A DNA stretch of 63,983 nt, counting the filler, from Dimargaris cristalligena (taxonomy: Eukaryota), in NCBI GenBank assembly GCA_003614675.1. It is 24 parts of 24 records of this genome, joined end to end, with 100 filler letters (N's around TTAATTAATTAA, not from the genome) between each part and the next. Parts side by side here need not be neighbours in the genome. Positions count along the whole stretch, not along the records: positions 37,852 to 40,441 come from ML004164.1; 23 more parts are not named here. One strand, 5' to 3'. This document shows positions 2,234-58,722 of the stretch, in pieces. Numbering within the stretch: position 1 is the stretch's first letter; each line of letters begins with the position of its first letter. The translations under genes were made by a program, and so were the position numbers. Under the pieces are notes generated by a model. That model was not told where the DNA came from and did no database searches. It saw only the letters and a program-made list of their open reading frames with translations.

Positions 2234-2744
2234 ATGTGGCCCAGCGCTCCTTCCTTCTTGTCTAGTTTAGGTCGACAACAGCCACCCTCTCCCTCTCAGC
2301 TTCGCTATTCATCAATCCAAACGGGCCTAAGGGATGAGCCATTACTAGCGCTTCACTGCCAACTAAAAACCAACCACGATATTCCCACACCCTTCATCAT
2401 CCGAACCCCAGCGCTCCCCTCGTACATTTCGTGTACTTTTTACCATATTTTATATACGAACCCTAAAATTATGTTACCATCCTTACGGACCACCCCTTTG
2501 CACCTATTACATTTATATCCTCGTATTTCTNNNNNNNNNNNNNNNNNNNNNNNNNNNNNNNNNNNNNNNNNNNNTTAATTAATTAANNNNNNNNNNNNNN
2601 NNNNNNNNNNNNNNNNNNNNNNNNNNNNNNTCATTTATCTATATCTATAACCCACCATTTTAACACATTTCCCGTTTTCGGACGCAATTGGCACAACACT
2701 TTGGTAGTGATGCTACGTTTTTTCTTTTTGAGCCGTAATTAACC

Positions 2745-8101: not shown

Positions 8102-10723
8102 GACTTTGAGTAAGGTTTTCTGGGGGTGGCCAGGCCATGATCTTGTTGATTTTCTCACGGCTAGGACGTCTGCCATCCTTATTACAGATGAAACCAACGA
8201 TTTTGATACTGGGAGTCCCAAATAAAGACTTTTCCCCACTTATTGTAAGGCCAGCATCTTCAAGGGTTGCCAAAATATTGCTATTGTCTTGAATATGGTC
8301 CCAGACGAATTTTCTGACACCAGGTTTTACAAAACCTTTGTCCATGATTTGATTTTCTCGAACACCAATGTCATCCATAAAAACTGCGACTTTTTGTGGA
8401 ATAAATTTGTACAAAACATTGATCATAGTACGCTGGAATACAGCTACAGAATTGGTAGCACCTTGGGATAGTCTAGTCATTCGTAGCAGGCCAAAGGGGG
8501 TTGGCAGTGCAAACATATCCCTGCACCGAGTATCCAGAGGGATTTGATCATACCCTGAATACATGTCAAATGATGAATAAATACTGCAGTTTGAAAAGTT
8601 TTCAGTAAATTCATCAATGACTGGGGGAATCCCTGCATCCTTGATGGTGACAGCATTGCCAGGACGCATATCTTGAAGGAACCTGAGCTTCCCTGACTTT
8701 TTCTTTTGGACAAACCAACGATTTGCATAAGGGCCAAAGCTTGGTTCCAGAATTCCCAGGCGTACCTTCTCTTGGAGCATTACTATTACTTGGGAGAGTA
8801 TGGCCTTTGTAATTGGAAAGGGCTTATAGCTCCAGGGAATGTGTGGGACCATGGGTATAAATACTGGGGGCGCTATATGGGGTTTCAATAGGCCCATTTC
8901 AGAGTCCTGGTAGCAGAATGCCCGCTCATGTTGTTTGAGCATTTCCTTAAAGGCGGTTCTTTCAGTAGCCAATAAAAACCCAGAATTTTCTACCAGCTGT
9001 TCTAGTCGCTGGTCAGTTAGTCTAGGGGTATCCACCCCCTCAAATGGAGCTTGGGGGAGGGCGGATGGACAGTTCCCATCAGGTAGAGGGGCTAAAACTG
9101 GACGAATTTTTTCTTTAACTGATTTGTATTTAGTACGTGCAATTGCCACTTGTTCCTGGGGTCCTATCAGGTCGCTGGGTATGCCAAATTGCTCCAGGGC
9201 AAGCTTATTTACTTGGACAATTGTTTGCTGGTTCCCTATGGCCCGTCTGACCCGAGTTTTATTATGGACATCTTTTCCAGTGGCCGCCAAAAATTGTACA
9301 CGAGTGGGGGATGTTTGGCATTGGATCCTATACCACACAGAGCCATCAGGAAGGCATTTCCTATCTGCTCTGGCTGCATGTTCCCAGGGTCGGCCTAAAA
9401 GGACTTCATAATCAGCGTCACCAGTGATGAAAGTGGGTACTTGAGTTTCTACACCTGAAATTGAAATTGAGCATTGGTGGCATACTCCCCGCAGTTTCTT
9501 TAGGCCTTGGTTAGCATCCTTCATATGCCAGTTGATATCAGTATCCAGGGTAAGTTGTTTGAGGTCATTCAGACGTTTGGCCATAGCCAGGGACATTACA
9601 CAGATTTCTGAACCAGGATCGATCTCTAGAACAGTGTCCACACCATTGATTTTGCCTTGTACGCTTGCAGTTGCCATAGAATAGAAGGGAATGGGTGCTT
9701 CTTCAGTTGTATTTTCCAGGGTGTCGGGCTGGAAGTAGGCAATTTCATTGACCTGGGGTATGTTGGTTGTTTGGCCACGCCTAGGCTTTACAGCCATATC
9801 AATTTCCTTTCTAATGGCCGGGGATAACAGCAGTAAGTCCCTGATAGAAACCTTGATATCAGTTTCCAGAATTTTGTAGGCAATTTTGGGGGGGTCGGGG
9901 ATCTTTTGGTCAGTAGGTACAGAGCCTAAGAATGTCTCAGTAGTCGTGGGTCTTTTGTCTGGGGTAGGTGTCACTTGGTTGAGCACCCCCTTGTCTGGTT
10001 TTCCCGTGGTTGTAGCTCCCAGAGTGCTATTTTTCAAGCCCGAATTTTTTGATAAGGTATTTTCAGTTTTCCTTGGGGTATTGGTAGGGCCGCTGCTGTA
10101 CTCTACTGGAGGTGTAGGGTTACTAAAAGGGGTAGTATCTCCCATAAAAGTAGCTGGGGGTCCTTGAAAGGGTCGTCCCAGCTCTTGTGCAAGCTGTGCT
10201 GGTGATAGAGGTTTTAGAATTTTCCTAGCCTCTCTCTCAGGGTCGCTGTTTGACCTGAATCTCTTTCCTAGGTATGCCAAGGGATTGTGAAACACAGGGC
10301 AGTCCCACCCAGTGGTTTCCTGGATGATAGCATCCTCTTCTATGTCGCTGGTAAATTCCTTGTTATTTTGGGCTTCCAGGGCAATAGCCCGATTTCTCAC
10401 AATAAATTCGTCATCAATAAAATCATTACTGATAATATCAACCTTCCTGGTAGCCGTAGAATTTCCTTGGTTTCTTGATAGGATAATTTGTTTGATACCT
10501 CCTTGGCCAAAGTTGGTTGAAATCTGATTTCCTTGATGGTCCAAGATAAATCCACACTGGTCCAAGTTTACCTAATGATTTTGGATAGCTTCCTGGAGGT
10601 CTTGACACTCACGTTTTTGATGGTCAGAGGAATCACAGTAAATACACCTGGATAATCTGGTGGGTGCTGTATACGCTGGTTTTTGGTGAGCAGGGAATCC
10701 AGCCGATTGGAAACCTTTACTGG
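8102..10723 (-). mobile_element. Ty3/gypsy gag-pol internal fragment (zinc knuckle, protease, RT) with an in-frame TAG at 10572-10574
   Basis: CIYCDSSDHQKREC knuckle; LEIDPGSE protease; RT motifs KKKSGKLRF, FDMYSGYDQIPL, QGATNS, FMDDI. Confidence 0.93.
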
Positions 10724-15950: not shown

Positions 15951-16767
15951 TTCTGAACTCATTTAAATGATGCTAATGAATGAGTCAGTAAATGAATAAA
16001 CTAATAATAAATAATATGTATCTAATGTGATGTTTCACTGAAGCATACAAAAATAGGGAATAGTATGTATGTAGCAATTGGGCAAATAGTAGTAAGCCAG
16101 TAAGATCATAGTCATCTAGGGCCACTAGAATGTCAACTAGCCCTTCCGTTTATAGTAANNNNNNNNNNNNNNNNNNNNNNNNNNNNNNNNNNNNNNNNNN
16201 NNTTAATTAATTAANNNNNNNNNNNNNNNNNNNNNNNNNNNNNNNNNNNNNNNNNNNNGAAAATTCGCGTTTAGCTATTATTATACATAAAGTCGAGCAT
16301 GGAAAAGGGAGTGAATAGTTAAAAATAATGGTCAACCCGGTGGCTATTTTGGGATGAAATTGCTCCACATATGTTATTAGTGTAGGCAAGCCCTGAAAAG
16401 GTGGCTTACCGCCCGGTGGGTCTGGCATTACATTTGATGAATCAGTTGATCGTCACCCATATCTACATATAGTATTCCTGTGGTGAGAAACTTAGTTTAC
16501 TAGGGCCGAGCTGTCCAGTTGACCGCCATTAGTGCAATAGGTATGATATTTACCCCGGCTTACGTTATTAGATATAAATGGCTGGGCCCCAGACCGCCAA
16601 TATTCCTACAACCAATAACCCTACATTTTTTACCAGAACTATCACATAAATAATGTGTTCGCCGACTTTCTTCTATACCACCATCACCCCTATGCCCGAA
16701 ACGCGGACTAACACATATTTAATAGAGCCAAATCCACCAACCCCATAGCAGCACTATACTTGCCATA

Positions 16768-18849
16768 ATGGTCAAAATCACCATCCCCCATGAAGTGGGC
16801 CAAACCATCGATGAAGGCCTAGCGGTCATCACCTGGCCCGACCCAAGCGGCCCCCAGTTCCTACCCCAAATCACAATCCATCCATTACCGGTCGAGTTCC
16901 ACCAACTCCAGTACCAGGGATATGCCGTGGTGCCATTGCTATATCGCCCCCAATTAGTTAAACCCCTTTTGAAGTTCATGGATCAATATTTGGAAGCACC
17001 GCCAGTGACTGTAAATGACACGCATGTATCTGCTGGGTCTGACGATGAGTTGGCGGCTAAACTCCAATACCTAACCCTACTCTCTAGCCGAAAACTAGGC
17101 GCCGCTTTAAAACAGAGGCCGCAAAATAAAATTCGTCCAGCTGCCACCAACAACAGGAACCCGCACTACCCTAGCCCAGCAGTTATAGGGGTATTCGGCC
17201 CGACTGGTATCGGCAAAAGCCATCTCATGTACATGGCCGCTGCCCAAATCCGGCGACGGTATCCCCACTCGCGAGTCGTTTACTCCCCCCACAACATCAC
17301 CCCAAGTCAGCCCACCGAAGATCTCATCCGGTGGGTAGATGAAATCGAAGCGACCTTCCATCTGGATCTCCCGATAGTCCGGCATTGTATGAGGCTGCGA
17401 CGATTGGTAGGTCTGGGTTCCCAAGGCGACCTGCTGTACGAGTGTCTGGGTGAGTTTTTGGAGGCCATTGTCACGTATAGCCAAACGAAGCGCCTAGTGC
17501 CCGTTTGGGTTTATGATCAGTGTGACCAATGGCCAATTGGTCTAGGCGAATACCGACGGTTCGCCCTCCAGTACTTGGCCAGGACACTCGGCGGGGGTGT
17601 GACTATAGTCGCTGGACATCAGGAGCCAGTCGAAACATTATCTTGCTCCGTCCAGTATGATATCCCCGAGGCGGACTATGGCTTTACTCTGGCTGAGGCC
17701 AGGCTGTGGTGGCAAATGTACCGGACCACCCTCGCAGTCCACTGGGCCGGCTTTGGACCCACGCGTGAGCAATGGCAGTTGATGGAGGACAGGGTTAGGC
17801 TAGTGCCGGGTGAGATTACACGGATATTACAGCATCTAGAGATGGCGGGCTCGGCAGCACCCGCCGATGCTGGGGGGTCCAATGTGGCAAATACCATCAT
17901 AACAGCAACAACAATTAAAAGCCATGGACAATTTACCGCATGGCTGGACCAATACTTCAAACGCCACACCCAAGCGCTAATCCAAAAGCACGGTGCCCAT
18001 ACCAGATGTTTATCGGAAGAGGAGCGACTCCAATTGCGAGCCCTAATCCTGGAAGAACCCTACAATTGGATAACTCCACTCTCTGGTCGGATATTGAACC
18101 TCGGCTTAATGTATATGGCTGGCGACCGAAAGTCTCCTTTGACCACCCTGTCCGAGCGCCCACCTACGCTGCGCTACCTCCATCCCCTAGCCAAACGGGC
18201 CATTGGCCAGGCGGAGCGGTCCCACAAGCATGCCGGGTTGGCTGAAGTGGCCCTCCAAGTGATGAAACACGACTTTCTTACCACCACCAAGGGCACCGTG
18301 TCCGAAAAATACGTTCTGGCACGCCTAAGGGAAACGCGGGCGTATGACTTGATGTGCATACAACTGCTGGGTAGTAGTGGGTTTATGGGTCGCCAAAGCA
18401 CGGTATTTGCTGCCACTGACTGCGATATTCGTACTTTGAACGGTCCGGAGGACCTGCATCTCTCTGACCCAGCCCGGCCATCTAAAGTATCTCGGACTGG
18501 ATCGATTATTTACCTGCCGCAAAGGGCCAACTTCCCCAAATTCGACTGGGTGATTTGGCACCAGCCGACGCGGCAGCTCCTACTGTGCCAAATGAAGGCC
18601 GGCAAGGAAGTGGCGCGGTACATCAACACTTTGGTCCACGCTGACCTGGAACCGTGGGCAACAGCGGCTGGTTTGAAAGTGAGCCAGGTGGTGGTGGTGT
18701 GGGTGGTGGCCCGCGACGTGTACTCGGCCTTGCGGTGTCGGCGATTCCACTTTAAATCCGAACGGGTCCCGCTCGAGCAGCAGTGGGTGATGTCGTTTCA
18801 AGATAACCCTCACTGGCCGGGGTTGCGGAGTTTTGATCGATTTGAATAA
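16768..18849 (+). CDS. P-loop NTPase fused to a C-terminal PD-(D/E)xK-like nuclease (Crinkler/RHS-type effector architecture)
   Basis: Intact 693-aa ORF; Walker A GPTGIGKS (17197-17220); Walker B-like VWVYDQ; EKYVL...YLPQRANFPKFD...LLLCQMK nuclease signature; AATAAA overlapping the stop. Confidence 0.78.
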   Translation: MVKITIPHEVGQTIDEGLAVITWPDPSGPQFLPQITIHPLPVEFHQLQYQGYAVVPLLYRPQLVKPLLKFMDQYLEAPPVTVNDTHVSAGSDDELAAKLQYLTLLSSRKLGAALKQRPQNKIRPAATNNRNPHYPSPAVIGVFGPTGIGKSHLMYMAAAQIRRRYPHSRVVYSPHNITPSQPTEDLIRWVDEIEATFHLDLPIVRHCMRLRRLVGLGSQGDLLYECLGEFLEAIVTYSQTKRLVPVWVYDQCDQWPIGLGEYRRFALQYLARTLGGGVTIVAGHQEPVETLSCSVQYDIPEADYGFTLAEARLWWQMYRTTLAVHWAGFGPTREQWQLMEDRVRLVPGEITRILQHLEMAGSAAPADAGGSNVANTIITATTIKSHGQFTAWLDQYFKRHTQALIQKHGAHTRCLSEEERLQLRALILEEPYNWITPLSGRILNLGLMYMAGDRKSPLTTLSERPPTLRYLHPLAKRAIGQAERSHKHAGLAEVALQVMKHDFLTTTKGTVSEKYVLARLRETRAYDLMCIQLLGSSGFMGRQSTVFAATDCDIRTLNGPEDLHLSDPARPSKVSRTGSIIYLPQRANFPKFDWVIWHQPTRQLLLCQMKAGKEVARYINTLVHADLEPWATAAGLKVSQVVVVWVVARDVYSALRCRRFHFKSERVPLEQQWVMSFQDNPHWPGLRSFDRFE

Positions 18850-21465: not shown

Positions 21466-21679
21466 TATAAAGAACTGAAATTAAATCCTTAAAGACTGAA
21501 CTTTATTTGAAAAAATAGATGATAAGAAGGGAAAGGTGATGATGGACTTACTGTTCCAAGAGATGGTAGTAAGTGGNNNNNNNNNNNNNNNNNNNNNNNN
21601 NNNNNNNNNNNNNNNNNNNNTTAATTAATTAANNNNNNNNNNNNNNNNNNNNNNNNNNNNNNNNNNNNNNNNNNNNTAT

Positions 21680-21752
21680 GGGGGGTTGGCGCAATTGGCA
21701 GCGCGTGCGTCTCCAAAGCGCGAGGTTGGGTGTTCGAGTCACTCATTCCCCA
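21680..21752 (+). tRNA. tRNA-Trp(CCA)
   Basis: Cloverleaf: acceptor GGGGGGT/ATTCCCC, D arm GCGC/GCGC, anticodon loop CTCCAAA, T arm GGGTG-TTCGAGT-CACTC; TTTTT terminator just downstream. Confidence 0.93.
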
Positions 21753-22774
21753 TATTTTTCATAATTCTTTTATAATGTTGGAGCCACCTGTCCCTCTACA
21801 GCTGCATGAATTTATAATCCTCCATTAGATCATTTTCTTTGTTTAGGGGATGGAGTAGTATCTAAATCTAAATTAACACAGGTTCATTATTTACAATTTG
21901 GACTAAACTAATTTATTCTTCATCATTTTAGATTCGAAACCCATATAGCCGATTTTATATCTCACCGGGTGGATGACTGTAAACGCTGTTTAATGGGTTG
22001 ACGGATCAATCAGCCTATTGCAACCTAGAACGTAGCAAGGAATGACTGTGGGTGGAATCCGATGAATAGAACGAGTTGGGGATCACACGCAGCAATTCCT
22101 GTTTTGGGGGATATATACGTCAAGTTATTTGACAGGATATTTAGTATCTTAGTAATTATTGTCTAGTGAAAGCCGGTGCAATTCCTCAATCTACTATAAC
22201 CCCTGACAGCCAACAACATGAGTGGAGTCTAAAATTATTTGTGGTTGCTGGTAGTACTGAACTTCATTTAATGACATTGCCCTGATATTTACTTCTTTGA
22301 ATATTAACTGTATTCGAATATTTGGTCAAACACACGAGCACTGTCCCCCTTTAACGCTAAACTGACTGTAAGGCGGAAAAAACAAAAAAAGCGCTGACTT
22401 CGGCCTCGGCTTTTGCATTGGTCCTTGCTTCAGATTGATCCGGGAGAATCCAAACGCTCCTTCCTCCATTTAACCTAGTAGTTTGGGGACAGTTCGCCGC
22501 TATCCAACCTTCTTCTCTACCCTACTTCCCATTTGAATTTAGATTCCCTAGATAATATAGTGCTGCCCTTCGACTTCCTCCTAGGTCGGATTGCCATAAC
22601 CGCTTGGTATTAACTCCGCGATCGTGACTCTCCGTGGGGGTTTAGTCCCCACTCTTTTTATGCGGTACTTGATCCCTTATTCTCCCGATGCTGATATTCG
22701 ACTCTTTAAATACATTTGCCTTTCCCTTATAATATATATTTTTTGCCGTACCTCTTTGTGGCTGCTCATTTGCC

Positions 22775-30019: not shown

Positions 30020-32071
30020 CTCATTGTAGCCGAAATGAACGTCCTTGAACTCGATGGCGCCGTCTGTAATATCCCAATCACAGGGTGCGTCATCGGGGTC
30101 ATGGATTTCATTGTTGATATCGATAAGCCGTAACAGATATTGGCATCCTTCAATCTCTTTCTTGACCCATCGCACTAGTTTGCATGCGTATGTAATTGGT
30201 CGGTAGGTTCTTTCAAAATAAGTCGCGAAACATATGATATGAGTAGACCTCATTTGGCCGCGTGAAAGTAGGCGGAGGCACATCATCATGCCAATGATTT
30301 GGGGCAGTTTTTCAACTATCCACCCCACATCCTTGAGGTTATTTCGATAATCTTTACCAGATTTGAGCGAAGCCTCATTTCCCATTTGGTCTTCATATTG
30401 GCCAATCTCGTAGTTCTCCGTCGCAAATTGCTTGATTAATCCGGAGACTTTGGTGGTATGTTTACCCACGCCACGTGGTTTATAAGGGGGGGGTATAGTC
30501 GATATTTCTTCGAGTAGGCCCAATAATGTTTTCCCTAATTAGATGCCACATACACATAGCCAAAGAAAGGGGCATAAAGTACGAATCGTAAAGCAATCGA
30601 AAGTGATATACAGAGAGTAGTACACCTACTAAATCCGATCCTAAGCCGATGAGAAAATATGATACAGTACGGACCAAATTGTCAATGGCATGTCGATGGC
30701 CGTTAATCGGGTTTCGCTTGGATGTGTCTAAACGAAGGCGTATCGACTTGGCCTGTATGATTGAATAAACAAATGGTTTACATCGTGATTTTAGGTGCTC
30801 TAATGCGGAGGAAGACGGGTCACCCGAACCCACATTTGCTGTAGAAATCAGCCGACTAACCACTAGGGACAATACGTATTGGATTAGAGGAGGGAAACTC
30901 GATGCGGGGCTGGCCAACGAGTCGAGAAATTCCTTATGGTACCACGGCTGAAAGGTCTGTACCCATTGGTTAATATATTTGAATATTGTACGTTGTACTA
31001 ACGAATATGCCACGCTTATGTTCATCGGAAACATCAGGTCATAGATAATGCGGGAGATACGGGTAATGATAATCCATGTAGGGTACTTAGAATATAGCCC
31101 ATTCTGGTTTTTTGTCATCTCGTCAGCTGGTGCAGGCGCAATCTGGGGAGACGCAAACGAAGAAAAAATACCAACGGTATAGTACCACATGATGTAGAGC
31201 GGAATAGCCAAGGTGAGGATAGTGAGCAGCAGTTTGGTGACCGCTATGCCAAGGGTAAGACGGCGTGCAAATAGCCCCACGGCAGGGGGGCCATCTTCAG
31301 GGAGCCAGTTACTTAGCAGATTCTGGATGAGCTCCCAGGTGTGGATAACCAACGCCACGGCCCAAAGCTGAAGCCAGTGGGGAATTATTATCGGATGGAT
31401 TTCGGCGATGGATTGGGCGTCGGCTTCGGAGTAAAGAAAATAATAAACCCCTACTGTGAAGGCCACCATGGCCTGTTGGAACATCGCCGAGATGAGCCAA
31501 GGGTGCCAGCTGGTTGGTATGTCGGGGTCGATGTAGACAGCGAACTGGGTCACCCCGACCTCGGCGTACATTAGTCCGAATATCACCCACATAGTAGTAT
31601 GGGCGGTGCGTAGCCACAGTTGGCCCAACTCAACTCTTCGGTTTGGACAATCATTTCTTATCCTGCGGGGCCCTATGTGAAGGGATATGGAGTGGATCAT
31701 AACATTCAACACAATATATATATACATATTAGAATACATTTTCAAATGAAGATTCGGAAGTCAATCAGGTTAAACTGAGGTGGGCTCTTCGTAATATAAT
31801 ATGACTTAGCGCAATCTGTAGTGGACGTACTCTTATCAAGTTGATGTTCAGTTAAATGGTGACCCAGGCGGTAGCGGCGTAAAATCAGGATGGCAATGGC
31901 CGTGAGGTATGCCAGTGTTGGTACGGCAGGGGGCAGGTAGAAACAATCCGGAGGCGAAAACCGGGACAGTAGGACCAAACCGGTTATCAAGACCGTTCCC
32001 TCCCACAAAAAGTTGACCGGTTTCAAGGTAACTGTCATGGTCACTGGGACATGTGCGGAGGTTATCTTCAT
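30020..32071 (-). pseudogene. Divergent half-size ABC transporter (HMT1/ABCB6-like), frameshifted and interrupted at the start of the nucleotide-binding domain
   Basis: Many transmembrane segments; LIKQFATENYE and DPDDAP...GAIEFKDVHFGY linker; frame change near the G8 run at 30486-30493. Confidence 0.7.
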
Positions 32072-32558: not shown

Positions 32559-32630
32559 TCTTCAATAGTATAGTGGTAAGTATCTCCGCCTGTCACGCGG
32601 AAGACCAGGGTTCAATTCCCTGTTGGAGAG
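32559..32630 (+). tRNA. tRNA-Asp(GTC)
   Basis: Acceptor TCTTCAA/TTGGAGA, anticodon arm TCCGC-CTGTCAC-GCGGA, T arm CAGGG-TTCAATT-CCCTG, oligo-T terminator. Confidence 0.92.
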
Positions 32631-37751: not shown

Positions 37752-37851
37752 NNNNNNNNNNNNNNNNNNNNNNNNNNNNNNNNNNNNNNNNNNNNTTAAT
37801 TAATTAANNNNNNNNNNNNNNNNNNNNNNNNNNNNNNNNNNNNNNNNNNNN

Positions 37852-40441
37852 GATCCCATTCCAATAACAAAATAACAAAATTATTATCATCATTAGAAGG
37901 TCAGTGGAGTGGGATTAGGGATTCAATGTTGATGGGGTGGATTACTTATACATTGAGGCTGCCTCGTTGGTTAGTTGACCTGTTTATTTAAGAAGTGCAG
38001 CGGAGTTGGGTGAGGGTTGACCCTGCATTTATAGGGATGGTCATTCACGATTCGTGTTGCAGGATTATTTTCGATTGGGTGGATCCTTCAGGGTTCGACG
38101 TCGTTTAAGTGACCCCTTTAATAATTGAGGCTGCATGGTTGAGTATGATCTAGAGGTTGCTTCGCTTACGATATCCAGTGGATAGAGCCGCCTGTGGCCG
38201 TCTCGGGTAGTATTATAAGTTCACGCTGCACGGTGGAATGCGCAAGGAGTCACCTCGACTACCATGATGAATATGACTAGGGTGATGACGGTGACTGATT
38301 GGTATGCACGCTTCGTTCAGAGTTGAAGGTAGGGAGCCACCTCGTGGGTGTCTCGTGTTGGTTATCGACTCTGCTTGTAGGGTGTTGACGAATGGTCCTG
38401 ATAATAGTTGAAGGAGTCACCTAGTGGATGGTTATAAACCAGGGTTGCACGGTTGAATGATCATGAGGTTGCTTCGCTTAGGAATACCGCTCCATTGAGC
38501 CGCCTATGGCCGTCTCAGGTTGACAATTAACTCTAGACTAACCTGAGACAGCCACAAGCTGGCTCCCTATGCTGAATCCTGGTAGTTGAATCACATGGAC
38601 CCCTGCTTATAGCTTACGGTTGCACGGTGTCACAGGTCCTGCTACTAAGTCTTAGTATTGCAGGTCGAGCCGCCTGTGGCCGTCTCAGGTCCATTTAAAT
38701 CTGTTGCACGGTTGGGTAACTTAAGCTGCACGAGTCGCTACGCTTATCGACACTGCGGAGTTGTTGAGACGGCCACAGACGGCTCCCTTCAATCGGGGTG
38801 TCGTTCCCAGTAATGGCCTTCCATCAGTGGAGTAGCTGGTGACATTTATGACGCCCTTTCCTTCTATAGTCTCCTTCAGGTTATTGTTGCTTGAGACAGC
38901 CACAGCGGGCTTCTATGGAGACGATGCTTTATCTGACGAGTTGCTTCGCTCACCATCATCACAGGTTTATTATAAACCATCGCTGCAGGTGGTGTTATAG
39001 CCGAGTCGCTTCGCCTGCCAAGATTCGATCAAAGGAGCCGCCCACAGGCGGCTCGGTAGATCAACTTAAATCATAGTTGCACGGTCATTGTGCACGATGT
39101 CGCTTCGCTTACTAACCACCCCACGATTGAGCCACCTCGTGGGTGTCTCAGATGAACTACCAATTATTGCTGCAGGGTGTCATGTCATGTATTATCCTAC
39201 GGAATGGGAGCCAGCTGTGGCTGTCTCAGGTGATGAATAACGAATTGATGCTGCTCGAATGGGAGCCAGCTGTGGCTGTCTCAGGTGATGAATAACGAAT
39301 TGATGCTGCTCCTTCGTTAATCCTGGACTGATCATCACGAGGCGCCCTTTTAATTCTGGAATCGTATTAATATGGAGCCGCCTGTGGCCGTCTCAGGTAG
39401 CTAACTAAAATACTGTGGCTAGAGACAGCCCCAGCTGGCTCCCATTGCGGAGGGAAGTCAGTATGGCAATACACGGTACAGCAACGATTGATACCTGAGA
39501 CAGCCACAGCTGGCTCTATACGACGAAGTTCTATAAGCGAAGCGACCTCGAAGGTGAGCCGCCTGTGGCCGTCTCGAGCAATTACCTTAATTTAGGGAGT
39601 TACCCGAGACAGCCACAGCTGGCTCCCTGCAACGAGGATCAATAAGCGAAGCGACCTAGATGTCAATGAGTTAATCAACCATGCAGCATCGATTTAAATG
39701 AGCTCTGAGACGGCCACAGGCGGCTCATTCCACACATCATGGACTAATCACCTGCAGCCTTGGTCAATCATTAACCCACCGTGTAACATCAATGTTAATC
39801 CACCTTAGGTGGTATTGTTAAGCGGAGCGACCTCATGATTAACCGGAGTCACCATCTTCAGATAGCGAAGCGACTCGTGCAGCATCAATCAACCTGCAGC
39901 CTGAATTGTTAATGAGACCACCAGCGGTGGTTCATAAGTGACCATCACCACCTTTTAAATGAACAACACCATAACCGTCATCAATAAGCGAAGCGACATC
40001 GTTATCAGAATCGTCATTATCAACTGCAACCTGAATTAGTAATCCACCCGAGACGGCCATAGTCGGCTCAACACTATGAAGACTGATAAAGGAAGCGACC
40101 CTTCAACATGAGACAGCAACAAGCTGGCTCCTTCAGCAATAATTGATAAGCGAAGCGACCTCGTACAGTTCAAGCAGCAGAACCGTCAACACCCTCACCA
40201 TAAACCTGAAACCCCGATTATCAATCATCTACCCTAGATGTACACAGCCGGCTCCACCAATGAACTACGACCCTCAACACGATCAAGCAATAACTAGGAA
40301 GAGGTCCAGCCATAGGAGCCAGCTGTGGCTGTCTCAAGCAACCATAATTAGGACTATGTTAGTCTCCTGAGACGGCCACAGGCGGCTCAACCGTAAAGAT
40401 GCTCATCTAAACGAACTACCGAGACGGCCATGAGTCGGCTC
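37852..40441. repeat. Non-coding array of three interspersed motifs (A: GAGCCGCCTGTGGCCGTCTC and variants, about 23 copies; B: GT[CT]GCTTCGCTT; C: G[CT]TGCACGG) with divergent spacers
   Basis: Counted by eye on both strands; includes an exact 55-bp tandem duplication at 39202-39311; no long ORF. Confidence 0.92.
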
Positions 40442-40857
40442 NNNNNNNNNNNNNNNNNNNNNNNNNNNNNNNNNNNNNNNNNNNNTTAATTAATTAANNN
40501 NNNNNNNNNNNNNNNNNNNNNNNNNNNNNNNNNNNNNNNNNTTACCTGGGAGCCGACCAGTACCCTCCGCCCCTTTCCATTTGCGATGGAAATCCCCCCA
40601 ATCCACACACACGCACCATAGTCCAGTTTGTTTAGTAGCTAGCTACAGTGCAGAAATTATCCACATAACCAACCCCTTTTATTTGTAAAATTATATGGCA
40701 GGGAAAAGAGTACGGTAAAGAGCTGTGATGTGCTACAGTTTAAATGCCATAGAGGATTTGGCCCTCATCTCTGTTCATTTAGGATAACATATCTCTAACC
40801 GCCCACCGTTTATGACGCTAACCAATACCTCACTCCCCCTTTCTATGCACCTATTAG

Positions 40858-51168: not shown

Positions 51169-52228
51169 GGTCACTCAGGTCGGGTAACGGCGGGCGCGGG
51201 CTAGGGGGTACCGAGGATCGGCCCGCACCTGGGGGGCGGCGCAGCTTATATAATGCATGGATGGCCGGACGAAGGAACAGATCCAGAGTCTCGAGCTGAG
51301 TGTCCCACCGCAGGTTTTGCATGCGAATACGGGGATCGAAAGCGATATCGGCGGAGATGGTGATAGTACCATTACCCCGAAATTGGCTGACAATACTGCG
51401 TCGTTTACGAGCCTTCGAGGGCACCAGAGCGGAGTCCAGATCGCTCAAGCTAAGATTGGTAACGTAGCGTAGCGTGTTGGCGCTGTCGGCATCCCCGAAG
51501 GAATTATGGGTCGTCAAAGGCTCGGTGGGGCGCATTTGTTGCTGGCGCTGTTGTTCTTCGGGGTTACTCAAGTCAAAGACACTGGAGAAGAGCATGGCCA
51601 TGCCCAAGGCTATTTGGACTTGGTCGTCTATGATCACCTCGGCTTCGGTGATGGTGAGGCAGACATTCTCCACGATATTACGCGCAAACTTGACCAGAAA
51701 ATTGTTTTTGCTAATATTCAAGACGCCCGATAGTATGGATTCATGGAGGGGACCCGCGGGGTTGGAGGCGGTGGTCGAGTCGTGGTCGTCATTACCGCCC
51801 TTGCGCTGCGAGCGGTTCTTCGGGGTGGGTGCCTTGCGCCTTGGGTTCGACTCGGACTGGGCTAAGTCCGCGGGGCCGGCGGCGGTGGTCTTTGGCTTAC
51901 GGGGGGTTGGTGGACGGAAGACTTTGACGGTAATGTCCTTGAGGTAGAATTCGATGGGCTTTACATAGGTCAGACCGAAGGGGCGCCGCCAGCGGTGGAA
52001 CCGTAAGCCGATGCGGCCCACGGTTAGGTGGACAATGGGGGTGGAAGGGTCCCGCTTACCCGTTTCGGGGAGGTTGAGGGACAGGTTACATAATGACAAG
52101 AAGCGAATTTTCTCCAGACGGATATTGTATTTGGACAGAGCCGAGTGAATAATATGGCTGATAAAAAGGTACACCGCGGTTAGCAGTATGGCCAATGCAG
52201 TACCGAAGCCCAGTAGATAGTAGGCCAT
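51169..52228 (-). CDS. FMP27/Hobbit (bridge-like lipid transfer protein)-like N-terminus, 3' truncated
   Basis: N-terminal transmembrane anchor followed by IRLEKIRFLSLCNLSL and VGRIGLRFHR beta-rich segments. Confidence 0.6.
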
Positions 52229-54858
52229 GGCTCCACCGGAGGGAGATGGTGATTGGTGCAGAGGAAATGAGAATAAGTAGCAGAGTAAAAAGAAGGAGCA
52301 GTAGGGGGAATAGAAAGGCAATGAGGGAGTCGGAGTTAGAATCCCCTTTTTATGATACTAGACGACGTGAAGGGAAAATAAATAGACAACTATGGTGGAA
52401 TGCCGTAGAGAATACGAAGAGACGAGTTGAATGCAGGGCGGGGTTAGAGTGAAGGCTCGACTATCGAGTGGGCAGAGTTTTCGACAGGACCAGCGCCTGG
52501 CCAAGCTTATAGCAGGACTAGGCTGCAGATATTAGGAGACGAGAAGAGGAAACTAGACAGGAGGGATTGTTGGGCCGTATAAGTTTAGTGTCTGGCGAAA
52601 TAAGCCTTTGCGCGCAGGCTCTCTCCCTGAAATCAAGCATCATCACCGAACCAATTGCCTGATTCTGTTTAATCAGCCTACTGAATTAAAATGGTACCTA
52701 ACCCAAGTATTGGGACGCTTCCCCTGTTCTATCCATGCCTTCCATTTGGCCTGGAAGACTGTCCAATTGGCTGTGGTGCCAGCCTATTAACCGCCGCTAT
52801 CATTGACTCTCCATCGGCTGACCACCACCCACACCACACTTGACACGCCATCCCCCTGCCTGGTGTTACAAGGGGAGTCCAGACTCTCAATTCGTGTTTG
52901 CATTGTCACGGCACCACCCCCTGTGGTCGCTATGGGGTACAGCATAGACCTGGGCGAGGGCTGTTATTGTCCAAAAATTGAACTATTGCCCGCGCTTGCT
53001 TAGTTTTTCCTAATCGACCAGCGGGAAATCAGAAACAAACATCGCCGGATGGTCATTAAGCAACCCGTTTTTTTCGCGGGCCAGCACTAGCACTTGCTTA
53101 ATATACGGATGGGGGAGATTTGTTCCTCTCTGAATTCCCAGCCCAACAGTTCTGCCTCTGCCCGCTTGCCCCAACCACTATCCCTCACCGCACATATTGG
53201 AGACACAGTGCAGCAGGAGTGTTGTCCGCCGGTTCACTGCATTTTGAATGGAACGACCTTAACAATTGCCCTGATTAGGTTGTGTGTTGACCACGAATTG
53301 ATTTATTCCCCACTCGAACAAGTACAAGGCACCGCTGGGTTTCCAGTAACCAATGAAAAGGATCAAAAATGAAACAGCCTGGGCTGGCTTGATTAACCAA
53401 GCTGTTTTTTGGGGAAGAAGGGGGGTGATAATCCCCGGCCGATGGCAGATGAGAAACCAAAATGGGATGGAGCGTTCGAGGTTTTTCTACAATCAAGTAT
53501 CGAAAGACTTTTTGATTTAAAGATGGATCGATGAAAGCGATGATTGTCGGATGAAGAGGGCGGATCATTAATGAATCCTGCTTCGTCTCACCGCAACGGA
53601 CGAACCCGCTTGTTCTTTTAAAGAGGCCTTCCGATTTCCGATTTATAAGAGTGGCCGAGAATCAATCCAGTAAATTTAAGCCAAAGCAATGAGACCCGTA
53701 GGGAGAGTCCTGCCCGCTCCTTTTCTGCTGCAATCTGCTTCTCTCATATNNNNNNNNNNNNNNNNNNNNNNNNNNNNNNNNNNNNNNNNNNNNTTAATTA
53801 ATTAANNNNNNNNNNNNNNNNNNNNNNNNNNNNNNNNNNNNNNNNNNNNTCCCATACACATATTGTGTAAAATCTTATACAGTTGGGTTGAAGTTCACCC
53901 ATATTTTGTTCGTAGTTCAGTAAAATTAAGTTATAAATGCAAGCCACAGGAACATTCCTATAGTTGGTGATGTTTGTGCAAAATACCACTAGACTTGGCC
54001 GCTCGAAGTGCCCAACTATCGACTGCGACAATTGGCATTATGGCCCGAAAAGACTTCGAGGCACTCTGCTTATTTGTAACATGTCTTGACCAAACCCGTA
54101 ACGGCCAATGAGTCTTTATGGACTATCAATGATGACAATAAATTTCAAAGAAAGGTGGTTTCATTGAATATAGTCCAAAGCTGCTTTGTCGTATGCCTCA
54201 AACGATTGGATAATTCCTTTCTGATGCAGTAATAAAATAAGTCTTTGAAAATAGGCGTATCCCTTCCCCATTAATAGACTGATGTGACTGTTAGCTAAAC
54301 AAATGCAATAGTCCTAAATGAATGGGCTTGACACCTCAACCATCTACCACTCCAACCGTTTCTATCAAATTAGCCTTAATCCCAAATATCCCCCCTACAC
54401 TAATACAATACACCCCAGAGATACCCCAAACGAATACATAACTGCGCCGAGAGAAGAATTACAATGTGGAATAGACCTTTTATTAAACGGTCACTGATAA
54501 ATCAAGGAGAGCTCCCAAAAACCACCAACCAGGTCCTGGAATCAAGGCGAAATAATCAACCTCAACTCACAAGGCAACCTTCAGCGTAAACTACATACGC
54601 GTATTGGTGGCATTGGTAAATGCCGTGAGAGAATGAAAACTAAAAAGTCCATCAATTGCGAGAGTGCGCGACTTAGAAAAACAAGATGATCAGAAAAATC
54701 CTGATTTCAGAAATGTAAACACTTGCGCTTAAAACAGACCAAATATCCCAAACTACCCGATCGCAACATTGATTCGATAATGACAGTCGGAATCCTGATG
54801 AAAGATTATATAACATCATGGGCTAAAAAGGAAAAGCGGTGGGGGGATGACGGTACAT

Positions 54859-56528: not shown

Positions 56529-58722
56529 AGGTTGGTGTGGCACAGAACCATGCCGTAGTTGTTGGTGGCATCAATCACCACCTGGTCCATGACACTGCCA
56601 CTGGGGGCCGCGATGTATGAAACCCCGGACTGGTAGGCCCGGTTGATGTTGTCCGAGAAGGGGAAAAAGGCATCGGAGCTGAGGGCCACGCCCCGCAGCT
56701 GCGCCAGGAAGGCCCGGCGTTCAGCGTCAGTCAGGGGCTCGGGGACCACCTCGAACTGGGCCTCCCACGCCGCGCGCTCGGCTCCGGCGCCGATTTGGTT
56801 GGTAATGTAGAGATCAATGGCGTTGGAGCGGTCGGGGCGCTTGGTCTCCTTCTTAAACTGGAAGCCGAGCACCTTGGGGTGGTGGCGCAACCACCAGTTG
56901 TCGGCCTTGTCACCGGCCAGTCGGGTGCAGTGGATGCGGGACTGCTGACCCGCCCCCAGGCCAATGACCATGCCGTTTTTGGCGTAGCAGACTGAGTTGG
57001 ACTGGGTGTACTTGAGCGCAATCGTGGCCACAATCAGGTCGCGGACGGCCTCGGGGGTAATGTCCCGGTTGGCCGAGACGATGTTTTGGAAGAGGGTCGG
57101 GTCCACCACGGCGTCGTTGCGGCGCTGCTGAAGCTGGACGCCGTAGACTTGGCGGGTCTCGATGGTGGGGGGCACATAGGCGGGGTCCACCTGGATAACG
57201 GTGTACTTGCCCCCCTTCTTCTTCTTGAGGATCGCCAGGGCGTCGGCCTCGAACCCGGGGGCAATAATGCCGTCAGACACTTCCCGGCTGATTAGCTTGG
57301 CCGTGGCCACGTCGCAAATGTCGCTCAGGGCGATCCAGTCGCCAAACGAGGACATGCGATCGGCACCGCGCGCGCGGGCGTAGGCGCAGGCCAGGGGGGA
57401 CAGTTCCATACCGGCCACCATGTACACCTGGGCCTCGACCTCGCTCAAGGGGGCTCCCACCGCGGCACCGGCAGGGGAAACGTGCTTAAACGAGGCGGCC
57501 GCGGGAAGATCCAGGGCCTGCTTCAGCTCCTTTACCAGCGGCCAAGCATTGAGGGCGTCGAGCAGATTGATGTAGCCCGGGGCCCCGGCGAGCACCTGGA
57601 TGGGCAGCTCGCCCTCCTTCATGAAGACCTGCGCGGGCTTCTGGTGGGGGTTGGCCCCGTAGCGCAGGGTAAGCTGGTTGGTGCCTGAGCCGTACTCGCG
57701 ACGGAAATAGTCGGAAATGGCCTCGTCGTAGTCGGCCGTGTGATTGAATGCCTTGATGGCGTAGGCCTGCTTCGAGGCCGCCGAGATTTGGCGGTGGTCG
57801 GCGGCACTGGCCTGGAGCTCGTTGATAAAGAGGGGGTAATCCGAGGGGTCGCAAAGGATCGACACGCGTTCGTGGTTCTTGGCGGCGGCCCGGAGCAGGG
57901 TAACCCCGCCAATGTCGATTTCCTCCACGGCCTGGGCCATGGTCACGCCTTCCTTGGCCACGGTGTTCTTGAAGGGGTACAGATTGCACACGACGAAATC
58001 GATCATGTTAATGTGCTGGGCGGCCAGATCGTTTTGATCGCTTTCGATGGAGCGCGCCAGAATACCGCCGTGCACGGCGGGGTGCAGGGTCTTGACCCGT
58101 CCCCCCAGCATTTCGGGGGCCTGGGTAATCTCCGAGACATCCCTGAGTGGGGCATCGTTAGGGAGGTTATCACCGGGTAGCGGACAGTGTACGAAGCCGG
58201 GGTTAGTTTTCAAGGTGGATATTGGATAACCCTGGGGATTGGGTAAAATGGTCCGCTGATGGGTAGCTGGGCTATTTTGCCCAAAAGGGGTTCTTATCCC
58301 CACCCGCCCTTGGGGCGCGAGGGTCAACTAGATGATACAATCAACTTACCGGACGGGGAGACCGGCTTCGCGAATCAAACGGGCGGTACCACCGGAGGCC
58401 ACCAGCTGGATACCCAGAGCACTGAGGTTCTGGGCCAGTTCCAGCAAACCAGTCTTGTCGTACACGGAGAGAAGAGCTAAAACGGGGAAACGGGGTGGGG
58501 TGAAAAGGTACGTAGACTGCTAGTGAGCCCGGGGGGTTGGGGGATAATTGGGACTGCACCGAGGNNNNNNNNNNNNNNNNNNNNNNNNNNNNNNNNNNNN
58601 NNNNNNNNNNNNNNNNNNNNNNNNNNNNNNNNNNNNNNNNTGCACCGAGGGGGTTGATTAAACGGCCATGCATGGCCTACTGCCGGGGAATTCCGAACGG
58701 TCGACTTACCGAGCTGAGGCAT
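56529..58722 (-). CDS. ADE16: Bifunctional AICAR transformylase / IMP cyclohydrolase; exons 58722-58710, 58476-58350 and 58142-56529 (last codons missing)
   Basis: [63 protein letters not shown] donors. Confidence 0.97.

Follow-up and report, generated by a model that had tools for sequence, protein, structure and literature searches.

The element occupies the whole of a single unplaced contig within the window, the 63,983-base stretch of DNA that was analysed. About 50 copies of three short conserved boxes, here called A, B and C, fill this 2.6-kb contig and are arranged in two arms facing opposite ways. An artificial 100-nt linker flanks the complete contig on each side, so what lies next to it in the window has no relevance and the ends of the array are assembly breaks rather than biology. 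Because the window is a string of unrelated contigs, any interpretation resting on adjacent genes would mislead. Stop-codon linkers of this type are a common convention in the literature. The contig and its borders are as follows.

37852-40441, no strand assigned: whole feature, a single unplaced contig of 2590 bp, 48.9% G+C, non-coding
37752-37851, no strand assigned: artificial linker N44-TTAATTAATTAA-N44, joining unrelated contigs, outside the element
40442-40541, no strand assigned: artificial linker N44-TTAATTAATTAA-N44, outside the element
37852-37892, no strand assigned: opening 41 nt of the contig, simple sequence rich in A and T, probably repetitive or a chimeric join

The view of the initial annotation that no credible open reading frame is present stood up, the longest stop-to-stop frame being 75 aa under code 11 and 129 aa under code 4. 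No gene, tRNA or rRNA lies on the contig, the only two tRNAs of the window sitting on other contigs, and no similarity links it to the window's other 24 contigs, with a longest common word of 14 nt. Two other contigs of the same assembly are fungal (Dimargaris, Dimargaritales). Two ORFs on neighbouring contigs had no exact counterpart in the protein collection, an atlas search with a neighbouring ORF led no further than Eukaryota, and the AICARFT contig lies at 56529-58564 of the window.

Box A was scanned over the 63,983-base window with the pattern GAGCCNNCNNNGGNNGTCTC, allowing at most 1 mismatch, with the expectation taken from 100 shuffles. The search returned 18 matches, all 18 within 38185-40388, against 0.00 expected. 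A looser search combined with reading brought the total to 24 copies (10 on the + strand, 13 on the - strand and one perfect palindrome at 39035), in good agreement with the roughly 23 copies on both strands counted initially. The copies are listed below.

38185-38204, +: box A type 1 (GAGCC GCC TGTGGC C GTCTC), by pattern search and reading
38334-38354, +: box A type 3 (21 nt, ACC..T stem)
38497-38516, +: box A type 1, left arm of doublet 1
38545-38565, -: box A type 2 (21 nt), right arm of doublet 1
38667-38686, +: box A type 1
38766-38785, -: box A, type-1-like
38893-38912, -: box A, type-2-like
39035-39054, no strand assigned: box A, perfect palindrome with 8-bp stem, z -4.93
39129-39149, +: box A type 3 (21 nt)
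39208-39227, +: box A type 2 (GAGCC AGC TGTGGC T GTCTC)
39263-39282, +: box A type 2, within copy 2 of the 55-bp duplication
39375-39394, +: box A type 1, left arm of doublet 2
39422-39441, -: box A type 2, right arm of doublet 2
39497-39516, -: box A type 2
39556-39575, +: box A type 1, left arm of doublet 3
39606-39625, -: box A type 2, right arm of doublet 3
39707-39726, -: box A type 1
39914-39933, -: box A, divergent, with another 6-bp stem
40050-40069, -: box A, type-1-like
40110-40130, -: box A, type-2-like (21 nt)
40235-40254, -: box A, degenerate
40316-40335, +: box A type 2, left arm of doublet 4
40369-40388, -: box A type 1, right arm of doublet 4
40421-40441, -: box A, type-1-like (21 nt), at the contig end

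The outer 5+5 letters of box A show 96% pairwise identity, and the motif is sharply bounded, with information content at background directly outside GAGCC...GTCTC(AGGT). Its form is an imperfect 20-21-nt hairpin or dyad, in which 88% of cells are paired, compared with 25-60% in slid controls. One stem pair co-varies, being G-C in 11 of 22 rows and A-U in 9 of 22; across the 24 copies the two co-varying positions read G/C 12 times and A/T 10 times, and never G/T or A/C. The single hairpin is weak (consensus -2.4 kcal/mol), while four head-to-head doublets of about 70 nt, with inner spacers of 27-33 nt, form long hairpins. Each doublet pairs one type-1 arm with one type-2 arm, and as DNA hairpins the four reach z values of -4.9, -2.3, -4.8 and -4.5.

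Box B, scanned over the window with the pattern GTCGCTTCGCTTA at up to 2 mismatches, occurs 13 times in the contig, with 2 stray matches elsewhere in the window, against 0.76 expected. The copies are 87% identical, 6 lying on the + strand at 38156-39111 and 7 on the - strand at 39534-40159. In 8 of 8 modules the spacer from B to A measures 16-17 nt, and the B-A modules fold no better than shuffles (z -0.5, -1.0, +0.2). Box C (GYTGCABG) has 15 of its 23 window matches in this contig, which makes up 4% of the window. The individual B copies and the two groups of C copies are given here.

38156-38168, +: box B, 16 nt ahead of box A 38185
38468-38480, +: box B, 16 nt ahead of box A 38497
38734-38746, +: box B
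38940-38952, +: box B
39005-39017, +: box B, 17 nt ahead of box A 39035
39099-39111, +: box B, 17 nt ahead of box A 39129
39534-39546, -: box B, 17 nt ahead of box A 39497 (- strand)
39643-39655, -: box B, 17 nt ahead of box A 39606 (- strand)
39819-39831, -: box B, then 6 nt and an unrelated 13-nt hairpin at 39800-39812 (search and reading)
39862-39874, -: box B
39985-39997, -: box B
40087-40099, -: box B, 17 nt ahead of box A 40050 (- strand)
40147-40159, -: box B, 16 nt ahead of box A 40110 (- strand)
38056-39176, +: ten copies of box C (GYTGCABG), starting at 38056, 38130, 38225, 38444, 38619, 38703, 38725, 38982, 39076 and 39169
39626-39900, -: five copies of box C, starting at 39626, 39680, 39751, 39876 and 39893

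The C/B/A triplets cited in the initial annotation were recovered at 38130/38156/38185, 38444/38468/38497 and 39076/39099/39129, and the switch in polarity that it described for B and C is exact, with B forward 6 times on the left and backward 7 times on the right, and C forward 10 times on the left and backward 5 times on the right. The strand bias of box A is a majority only. These orientations define the two arms, which are listed with the duplications found in and between them.

38056-39311, +: left arm, 6/6 B and 10/10 C forward; box A 7 on +, 3 on - and 1 palindrome left of 39320
39422-40441, -: right arm, 7/7 B and 5/5 C backward; box A right of 39320 3 on + and 10 on -
39202-39311, +: perfect tandem duplication, 55 bp x 2, a recent local duplication
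39095-39227, +: left arm of a central local palindrome, pairing with 39422-39550 (135 nt, 70% identity, axis near 39323)
39422-39550, -: right arm of the central local palindrome, from self-BLAST

The spacers follow the same division. On the top strand they are G- and T-rich in the left arm and C- and A-rich in the right arm, the GC skew with boxes masked being mirrored at +0.17 and -0.20, and their G+C content is 42-45%. The distance from one box A to the next lies between 47 and 207 (median 94), so that the 90-100-nt period proposed earlier survives as a median only. Tandem Repeats Finder reported just the perfect 55-bp x 2 repeat and, at the left end, an AT-rich microrepeat of 19 nt. A classical satellite is built of highly similar monomers of regular length set head to tail; here the distances are irregular, both orientations occur and that program returned no array beyond these two repeats.

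Self-BLAST gave 21 alignments of at least 35 nt that reach past single boxes (9 direct and 12 inverted), with 69-92% identity. The inverted matches are patchy and lack a single axis, with midpoint sums from 77701 to 79942, and the arms are not colinear mirror images. Folding of the central 999 nt gave a z of -12. The spacers between B and A are 40% identical, compared with 28.7 ± 1.9% in shuffles, none of 1000 shuffles being as high. The claim that the spacers are largely unrelated must therefore be abandoned in view of this residual identity and of the self-alignments extending beyond the boxes, while the companion claim that the boxes are kept far better than the spacers is upheld (96% for the outer letters of box A, 87% for box B and 40% for the B-A spacers). 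Spacers aligning as well as the boxes, the outcome named in advance as contrary to that claim, were not found (40% against 87-96%). The spacers are thus nearly saturated yet homologous, and since they retain this residual homology, the array is best described as a repeat of great age that has decayed and been rearranged, not as a collection of unrelated inserts. The 55-bp x 2 repeat, the 9 direct and 12 inverted self-alignments, and the palindrome with arms of about 130 nt show that it grew by duplication and inversion.

Sequencing runs provide a second view of the element. The contig is present in 6 runs from 3 studies, with 52-93% of sampled words recovered; four further runs belonging to the same sample or study contain almost none of its words. 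No RNA data set was among those listed as containing it, which carries no information on expression. Contigs from runs X1, X3 and X5 match from 37893 rightward and diverge to the left of 37893, and the summed depth is very high in the bin holding the first 41 nt. Other family members in the runs show the same B-16/17 nt-A and A-C order with different spacers, and include A-to-A joints of 19-40 nt.

Searches for relatives outside the assembly were negative. Plasmid and phage collections (blastn) gave no match and viral contigs 0 matches, while 21 loci in metagenome contigs and 10 in prokaryote genomes each held one chance-level match with no second box (31 of 31). No transposase domain was detected in 14 long ORFs scanned on the window's other contigs. 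A 74-aa conceptual translation over four A boxes had no relative among proteins of 40-130 aa in a weak search. Inspection by eye disclosed neither pairs of snoRNA C/D boxes with terminal stems nor a hammerhead core, nor splice-site logic consistent across units, nor integron-like attC boxes. A literature search for Dimargaritales repeats or centromeres found nothing.

Several known classes were rejected on their particulars. Nothing favours the cassette array with recombination sites that had been offered as one option, and this reading is unsupported because the spacers are without ORFs and homologous to one another. A kinetoplast-minicircle or guide-RNA cassette was dismissed because a 12-nt minicircle block is absent from the contig at up to 2 mismatches and the assembly is fungal. 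MITEs were set aside, the doublets having inverted arms of 20-25 nt and flanks without direct duplication, with the flanks of doublet 2 partly extending the palindrome. Helitron ends carry a 3' hairpin followed by CTRR within about 10-12 nt and a 5' TC; no CTRR stands at a fixed distance after box A, where AGGT, GGGT, GAGC or AAGC is found instead. REP/BIME and REPIN elements are imperfect palindromes of the 20-nt class in bacterial chromosomes, with an associated RAYT transposase. They resemble the array in palindrome size, conserved outer letters with compensating inner changes, clusters of alternating orientation and head-to-head doublets with a short, less conserved spacer, but the host here is a eukaryote, the B and C boxes have no counterpart among them and a RAYT-type gene is not known here. 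The two fungal contigs of the assembly and the 31 of 31 single chance-level matches in the prokaryote and metagenome scans led to their rejection.

The sequence appears undescribed, nothing similar having come up in the phage, plasmid, viral, metagenome and prokaryote collections searched, while its general kind is familiar; the initial annotation was right to name no family. We tentatively read the contig as foldback- or CACTA-like subterminal repeat arms of a gene-less element, or as a satellite derived from them, a reading that we regard as quite possible and for which the transposon origin is putative. It may equally be described, with the same reserve, as belonging to a non-coding family of hairpin-motif arrays that is specific to the lineage and resides in the DNA of a Dimargaris fungus or its culture, with a presumed nuclear location. 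Among the options offered initially, the subterminal or foldback-transposon one fits the anatomy best.

Under this transposon-arm reading, each unit of 60-110 nt would comprise a C box, about 15 nt, a B box, 16-17 nt, an A box and about 20 nt, and the units would be very old, heavily diverged and locally rearranged copies set in two arms of opposite polarity. The arms would represent the repeat-filled terminal or subterminal parts of DNA transposons from a family that lacks genes and resembles foldback or CACTA elements, or else a satellite that grew out of such parts. Box A, an imperfect 20-nt dyad or hairpin often set head to head in 70-nt doublets, may bind a protein, with box B at its fixed distance as a second contact, and the array may have grown and been scrambled through local duplication and inversion at the hairpins.

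Foldback (FB) transposons of Drosophila and other eukaryotes have long inverted arms of subrepeats at the ends of a bounded, dispersed element with target-site duplications, are non-coding, snap back strongly and are heterogeneous from copy to copy. The contig likewise carries two long inverted arms of short subrepeats, with B and C strictly opposite and units 69-92% identical, lacks coding capacity, has snap-back potential and belongs to heterogeneous copies. FB arms, however, are fairly homogeneous tandem subrepeats and mirror images, unlike the near-saturated spacers and the patchy arm match without one axis seen here.

CACTA (En/Spm) elements possess terminal inverted repeats starting with CACTA, produce a 3-bp target-site duplication and encode a transposase in autonomous copies. 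Their subterminal regions hold short motifs running both ways with stem-loops, as does the contig (24 box A copies; doublets z -2.3 to -4.9). The soybean CACTA element Tgmt*, a close precedent in architecture, has 24 subterminal repeats in 732 bp, direct and inverted, forming 12 stem-loops and built of two sub-motifs thought to bind a TNPA-like protein (PMC2613891). The likeness covers many copies of a 12-20-nt motif, direct and inverted, over hundreds of bases, inverted pairs yielding stem-loops, a motif divisible into sub-motifs, element ends opposite in polarity, unconserved spacers, and gene-less deletion derivatives amounting to roughly two ends alone (PMC2613891). The contig differs in its arms above 1 kb, motifs three times sparser and three ordered boxes at fixed spacing in place of one motif.

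Within the window, the confinement of box A to the contig, together with 13 of 15 B and 15 of 23 C matches, all far above chance, also counts for the transposon-arm reading. The opposite polarity of B and C in the two arms, the mirrored spacer skew, the sharp borders and hairpin form of box A, the folding doublets, the visible growth by duplication and inversion, and the like order of boxes in other family members favour that reading too. Against it stand the contig ends, both inside the array, so that neither a terminus nor a target-site duplication is visible, the lack of a transposase domain in the 14 long ORFs scanned, the non-colinear arms with inverted matches lacking a single axis, and a density of roughly one box A every 94 nt, a third of that in Tgmt*, over arms longer than 1 kb. 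Three co-ordered boxes, held spacing and near-saturated spacers suggest a stronger constraint than dead transposon ends usually show. The family apparently consists mainly of arrays rather than dispersed solo elements, given the 19-40-nt A-to-A joints and no copy in the window's other 61 kb. The very high depth in X1 and X3 is not predicted by this reading.

That depth is the chief argument for a high-copy replicon, whose repeats could belong to hairpin-bloated mitochondrial DNA, to a plasmid-like or virus-derived molecule, or to its inverted-repeat ends, an origin we consider rather unlikely. Contigs over unique spacers reach depths of 1,674-2,295 in X1 and 1,247-2,487 in X3 with the same left-to-right rise, and close paralogues in these runs show similar depths, although these values are not copy numbers. 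The stretch, 0.007% of letters, drew 1,992 of 240,313 records (0.83%) in X1 and 2,470 of 212,529 (1.2%) in X3, so the whole genome cannot be equally deep; hairpin-rich or snap-back DNA may, however, be over-represented through library or amplification bias. The depth of only about 3-7 in X5 and X6 and the near-absence from four sibling runs would be in keeping with carry-over of an abundant molecule. Mitochondria of fungi and algae are well known for palindromic hairpin repeats, which favours this origin, and the GC-rich palindromic clusters and double-hairpin elements of fungal mitochondria are short, mobile-looking and sharply bordered, occurring in both orientations in non-coding DNA. The boxes share these hairpin features but are ordered at fixed spacing, the spacers are not AT-rich and the contig carries no mitochondrial gene, nor any other gene, tRNA or rRNA. 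Its 49% G+C, with 42-45% in the spacers, is high for fungal mitochondrial DNA. According to one study, D. cristalligena carries a homologue of a giant-virus capsid (PMC13533422). The contig itself has no match in the viral, phage or plasmid collections.

Selection on a chromosomal function offers another explanation. The contig could be a protein-binding array serving the host as a centromere core, pairing site, origin cluster or boundary, which we judge unlikely; just as unlikely is the specific form in which each unit is a three-box module for sequence-specific proteins, loosely following the CDEI-CDEII-CDEIII logic of point centromeres in reiterated form. Conservation of boxes and spacer lengths against nearly saturated spacer sequence supports such an array. 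So does the occurrence of the family as arrays instead of dispersed copies, although this distribution is deduced from very little sequence. Summed box depths of about 10 to 130 times those of the unique spacers, which are sums and not copy numbers, would fit a modest number of arrays. The CENP-B box of alpha-satellite is a short protein box kept within satellite DNA. Mucor provides a fungal precedent in a centromere-specific 41-bp motif that marks each core centromere (bioRxiv 10.1101/706580), and titles and abstract openings in the literature yielded no centromere description for this phylum. With both systems the contig shares a short motif under selection amid fast-evolving non-coding repeats, but it has no head-to-tail period, its units are more diverged, both orientations occur and it is not AT-rich. 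Point and mosaic centromeres occupy one locus per chromosome and bind the kinetochore. The cores of Mucor and budding yeast are AT-rich with one motif set per centromere (10.1101/706580), whereas the contig has 49% G+C and 24 A boxes in 2.6 kb.

A transcribed small-RNA or hairpin-RNA locus is quite improbable, whether the arms or doublets would supply double-stranded RNA for RNA interference or, no more credibly, the units would act as mini-genes in which C and B serve as promoter elements and the box A hairpin acts in processing or as a terminator. The strong fold-back potential of the doublets and the central 999 nt, the co-variation of hairpin stem positions, and the length-constrained, variable 16-17-nt segment directly 5' of the hairpin count in favour of such a locus. 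The lone box A hairpin, however, is weak, the B-A modules fold no better than shuffles, and the variable segments are mutually homologous, as expected for decayed copies rather than diverse functional RNAs. In Rfam 15 no family reached its gathering score, the sole match with E at or below 1 being a chance-level one to mir-312 (20.3 bits against 55, E 0.5).

It is very improbable that the mirror arrangement is an artefact in which two arrays of real sequence were chimerically joined at a shared box during amplification or assembly. The contig is short and unplaced, its first 41 nt are not continued by run contigs, and short-read assemblers could make a false junction at any box A. Even so, the arms are 69-92% identical in patches only, unlike self-inverted chimeras, all 30 depth bins are covered in the four runs mapped (4/4), and overlapping contigs from different runs span the polarity switch over 39308-39816 with unique sequence in the overlaps (X5/X6 39308-39419, X1 39374-39516, X3 39422-39580, X6 39440-39816). 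A guide-RNA array, holding many different guides beside a shared handle, with each unit a mini-gene, C and B as promoters and the 16-17-nt variable segment 5' of a box A scaffold used by an RNA-guided protein of this fungus, is extremely improbable, the residual homology of the segments and the weakness of the lone hairpin weighing against it.

Dimargaritales are barely studied mycoparasites. The sharply defined 20-nt hairpin motif and the fixed B-17-A module could serve as probes for a protein partner and for the locations of the arrays, and such motif probes could ask whether the arrays mark transposon ends, centromeres or an extrachromosomal molecule.

The array of short boxes A, B and C at 37852-40441 coincides exactly with one contig of 2590 bp and 48.9% G+C. 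The window is a pseudo-molecule, not a chromosome, consisting of 25 contigs of about 2.6 kb each in descending length order, separated by 100-nt linkers of the form N44-TTAATTAATTAA-N44. Because the feature is a single contig between linkers, neighbouring sequence in the window is uninformative about the array, and the array's ends are assembly breaks. G+C across the window contigs ranges from 34% to 62%, and a plain 76-N gap lies within the window at 58565-58640. The first 41 nt of the array contig (37852-37892) are AT-rich and contain a AATAACAA microrepeat. Contigs of three coded sequencing runs (X1, X3 and X5) match from 37893 and then diverge leftward without continuing these 41 nt, over which summed depth is very high. 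Most probably another repeat joins here, or the contig end is chimeric.

Searching the whole window for box A (GAGCCNNCNNNGGNNGTCTC, at most one mismatch) returned 18 matches, with 0 expected, and all 18 fall within the contig. Looser matching raised the count to 24, of which 10 are forward, 13 reverse and one a perfect palindrome, in agreement with the initial annotation, which had counted about 23 on both strands. The contig has 13 copies of box B (GTCGCTTCGCTTA, up to two mismatches), where 0.76 would be expected over the whole window; six are forward, at 38156-39111, and seven reverse, at 39534-40159. Of the window's matches to box C (GYTGCABG), 15 lie in the contig and 8 in the remaining 61 kb; in the contig, the 10 forward copies reach as far as 39176 and the five reverse copies start at 39626. 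The opposite orientation of boxes B and C in the left and right arms, described previously, is exact for both boxes; box A polarity is a majority only (7 forward and 3 reverse left of 39320, 3 forward and 10 reverse to the right). Spacer composition is mirrored too, since with boxes masked the left arm has a GC skew of +0.17 and an AT skew of -0.11, and the right arm -0.20 and +0.14. The longest open reading frames, 75 aa in code 11 and 129 aa in code 4, are likewise in keeping with the earlier statement that the array holds no credible ORF.

Box A has sharp borders. Aligned in one orientation, 21 copies show high information content only over GAGCC to GTCTC plus AGGT; beyond these it drops to background except for a few columns 24-28 nt upstream, which are part of box B. 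The box forms an imperfect hairpin with an outer GAG/CTC, a C-T mismatch, a 3-4-bp inner stem and a TGTG loop. In a 22-copy alignment, 88% of cells are paired; shifting the partners by 1-3 columns lowers this to 25-60%. G-C fills one stem pair in 11 rows and A-U in 9, and a second pair is G-C in 8 rows and C-G in 3. The two co-varying positions are G/C in 12 of all 24 copies and A/T in 10, with no G/T or A/C; the pattern may stem from just two or three subfamilies and not from many independent events. Even so, the hairpin is kept with quite different stems in other copies, for example those at 39035 and 39914 and the 21-nt boxes at 38334 and 39129. In all eight modules where boxes B and A are adjacent, B precedes A by 16 or 17 nt; by reading, the gap is about 15 nt where C precedes B and about 16-21 nt from A to the next C. 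The proposed 90-100-nt period holds only as a median: A-to-A distances range between 47 and 207 (median 94), with no regular period. Four doublets, with 27-33 nt between arms, each pair one arm of box A type 1 with one of type 2.

Doublets of box A in the array, with fold z as single-stranded DNA
38497/38545, forward/reverse, doublet 1, fold z -4.85
39375/39422, forward/reverse, doublet 2, fold z -2.30
39556/39606, forward/reverse, doublet 3, fold z -4.82
40316/40369, forward/reverse, doublet 4, fold z -4.51

The spacers had been called largely unrelated, which holds in that they have diverged almost to saturation and fails in that residual homology persists: spacers between boxes B and A (n=8) share 40% pairwise identity, versus 28.7 ± 1.9% when shuffled, and 0 of 1000 shuffles reach 40%. 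With box A outer letters 96% identical and box B 87% identical, the contrast of conserved boxes and diverged spacers stands. Self-BLAST (E up to 1e-3) yields 25 direct and 35 inverted alignments in the contig; those of at least 35 nt (9 direct and 12 inverted, 69-92% identity) reach past single boxes and include a 312-nt-spaced pair, a 109-nt-spaced pair and, around 39323, a local palindrome with arms of about 130 nt. A perfect duplication (55 bp x2) is also present. Spacer homology and self-alignments beside well-kept boxes mark the array as an old, diverged repeat, whose near-saturated units have been shuffled by duplication and inversion with boxes and spacer lengths held. The mirror symmetry is upheld for B and C polarity and spacer skew but not for the inverted self-matches, which share no single axis and are unlike those of a simple mirror-image foldback.

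Six runs (X1-X6) from three studies, with three coded organism labels, contain 52-93% of the sampled words, and the assembly itself may derive from one of them. Contigs from four of the six, compared with 37852-40441, show almost no differences; at 38412 a fixed difference sets A in the window against T in contigs of X1, X3 and X6 (X5 has no contig there). Run contigs end at boxes, as expected for short-word assemblies. Loose ends and joints in the runs reveal other family members with different spacers and the same box order; in some, for example, box B precedes A by 15-17 nt, a C-like box follows A after about 20 nt, or doublets have 19-36-nt inner spacers. The contig and its close paralogues differ in at least 16 substitution rows (15 sites) and 12 insertion/deletion rows (11 sites); among the differences listed, which are clustered, none lies inside an A or B box, which is only a hint.

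Of the architectures documented, that of the subterminal region in CACTA transposons comes closest. According to PMC2613891, the soybean CACTA element Tgmt* carries 24 direct and inverted repeats in 732 bp beside one end, which form 12 stem-loops, comprise two sub-motifs and are thought to be bound by the element's TNPA-like protein; subterminal motifs vary widely from family to family. On the favoured reading, tentative and at somewhat under even confidence, the array may represent CACTA-like subterminal arms of a gene-less derivative, a foldback-type element, or a satellite grown from such arms. Its opposite-polarity arms full of a hairpin-forming motif resemble such elements. Long arms and sparse motifs weigh against the CACTA or foldback reading. 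The three ordered boxes and a family seemingly confined to arrays also speak against it, as do the termini, target duplications and transposase missing from this single contig.

Depth over unique spacers is uneven across runs, at 1,674-2,295 in X1 and 1,247-2,487 in X3 (contigs), 3.7-7.5 in X5 and 2.8-4.4 in X6, none of these being copy numbers. In X1, 0.83% of records fall on a stretch holding 0.007% of letters, so in that run the depth of the family greatly exceeds that of the bulk genome. Four further runs that share a sample or study with X5 and X6 contain almost none of the sampled words, which is not proof of absence. One possible cause is a high-copy molecule, present elsewhere only in trace; another is over-representation of hairpin-rich DNA by library making. 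The first would suit the repeat region of a high-copy replicon, an unlikely identity for the array, and blastn against plasmids and phages found no match to the contig. An array bound by host proteins, for instance at a centromere, could account for the conserved boxes and is unlikely; the Mucor centromere-specific motif (10.1101/706580) is a precedent but is AT-rich and single-copy per centromere. A small-RNA or hairpin-RNA locus is very improbable: the fold z of about -12 over the central 999 nt of the array would fit it, but modules of boxes B and A fold no better than shuffled sequence, and no Rfam family matched the contig. Some weight goes to none of these readings. Least credible is an assembly or amplification artefact behind the mirror arrangement; run contigs with unique overlaps (39308-39419, 39374-39516, 39422-39580 and 39440-39816) bridge the polarity switch.

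Exact box A is absent from the viral contigs searched. The degenerate 20-mer matches 21 loci in JGI metagenomes and 10 among 185,579 prokaryote species (one genome each), always singly with no second copy, which by rough estimate is about chance expectation; contamination from a represented bacterial species is therefore ruled out. A 74-aa conceptual translation across four A boxes found no relative among predicted proteins of 40-130 aa. Calling the family lineage-specific denotes only its absence from plasmid, phage, viral, JGI metagenome and prokaryote collections. No paper listed for repeats or mitochondria of Dimargaris, centromeres of Zoopagomycota or foldback elements of fungi describes such arrays in its title or abstract opening.

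The ORF at 56529-58327 (-) encodes an intron-free AICARFT/IMP cyclohydrolase (purine synthesis). An NCBI protein named 'Dima...', from a Dimargaris species, matches it at 100% identity, and its counterparts in other Dimargaritales (Dispira, Tieghemiomyces and two more 'Dima...' entries) match at 78-81%. A kinase fragment on the following contig is most closely related, at 38-45% identity, to sequences of Dispira, Tieghemiomyces, Dimargaris verticillata and D. xerosporica. Judged by these relatives, the assembly source is a Dimargaris-type fungus (Dimargaritales, Zoopagomycota). Dimargaritales are mycoparasites cultured on host fungi, so the contig cannot be proven to be the parasite's own DNA. 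Elsewhere in the window are Ty3/gypsy-type retrotransposon pieces at 2739-3983 (+, gag/capsid domains) and 8102-10571 (-, aspartyl protease and reverse transcriptase), and further contigs encode a PPR-like and a Vps51-like protein. Relaxing E to 0.1 still brings no Pfam family for three long open frames: 1-2265 (+, 754 aa), 30480-31760 (-, 426 aa) and 51170-52357 (-, 396 aa). A 707-aa frame at 16726-18849 (+) has weak P-loop NTPase-like matches (E 0.006-0.04, all under Pfam thresholds). PMC13533422 reports a giant-virus major-capsid-protein homologue in Dimargaris cristalligena, the sole non-zoosporic fungus with such a match. Two tRNA genes lie on other window contigs.

21679-21753, + strand, tRNA Trp-CCA
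32559-32630, + strand, tRNA Asp-GTC

The architecture of the array has clear precedents, and one 2.6-kb contig cannot settle its function. The repeat family is real, well built and undescribed, and belongs to a poorly known fungal order; its significance would rise sharply if the arrays proved to lie at centromeres or on an extrachromosomal molecule, or to give rise to discrete small RNAs.
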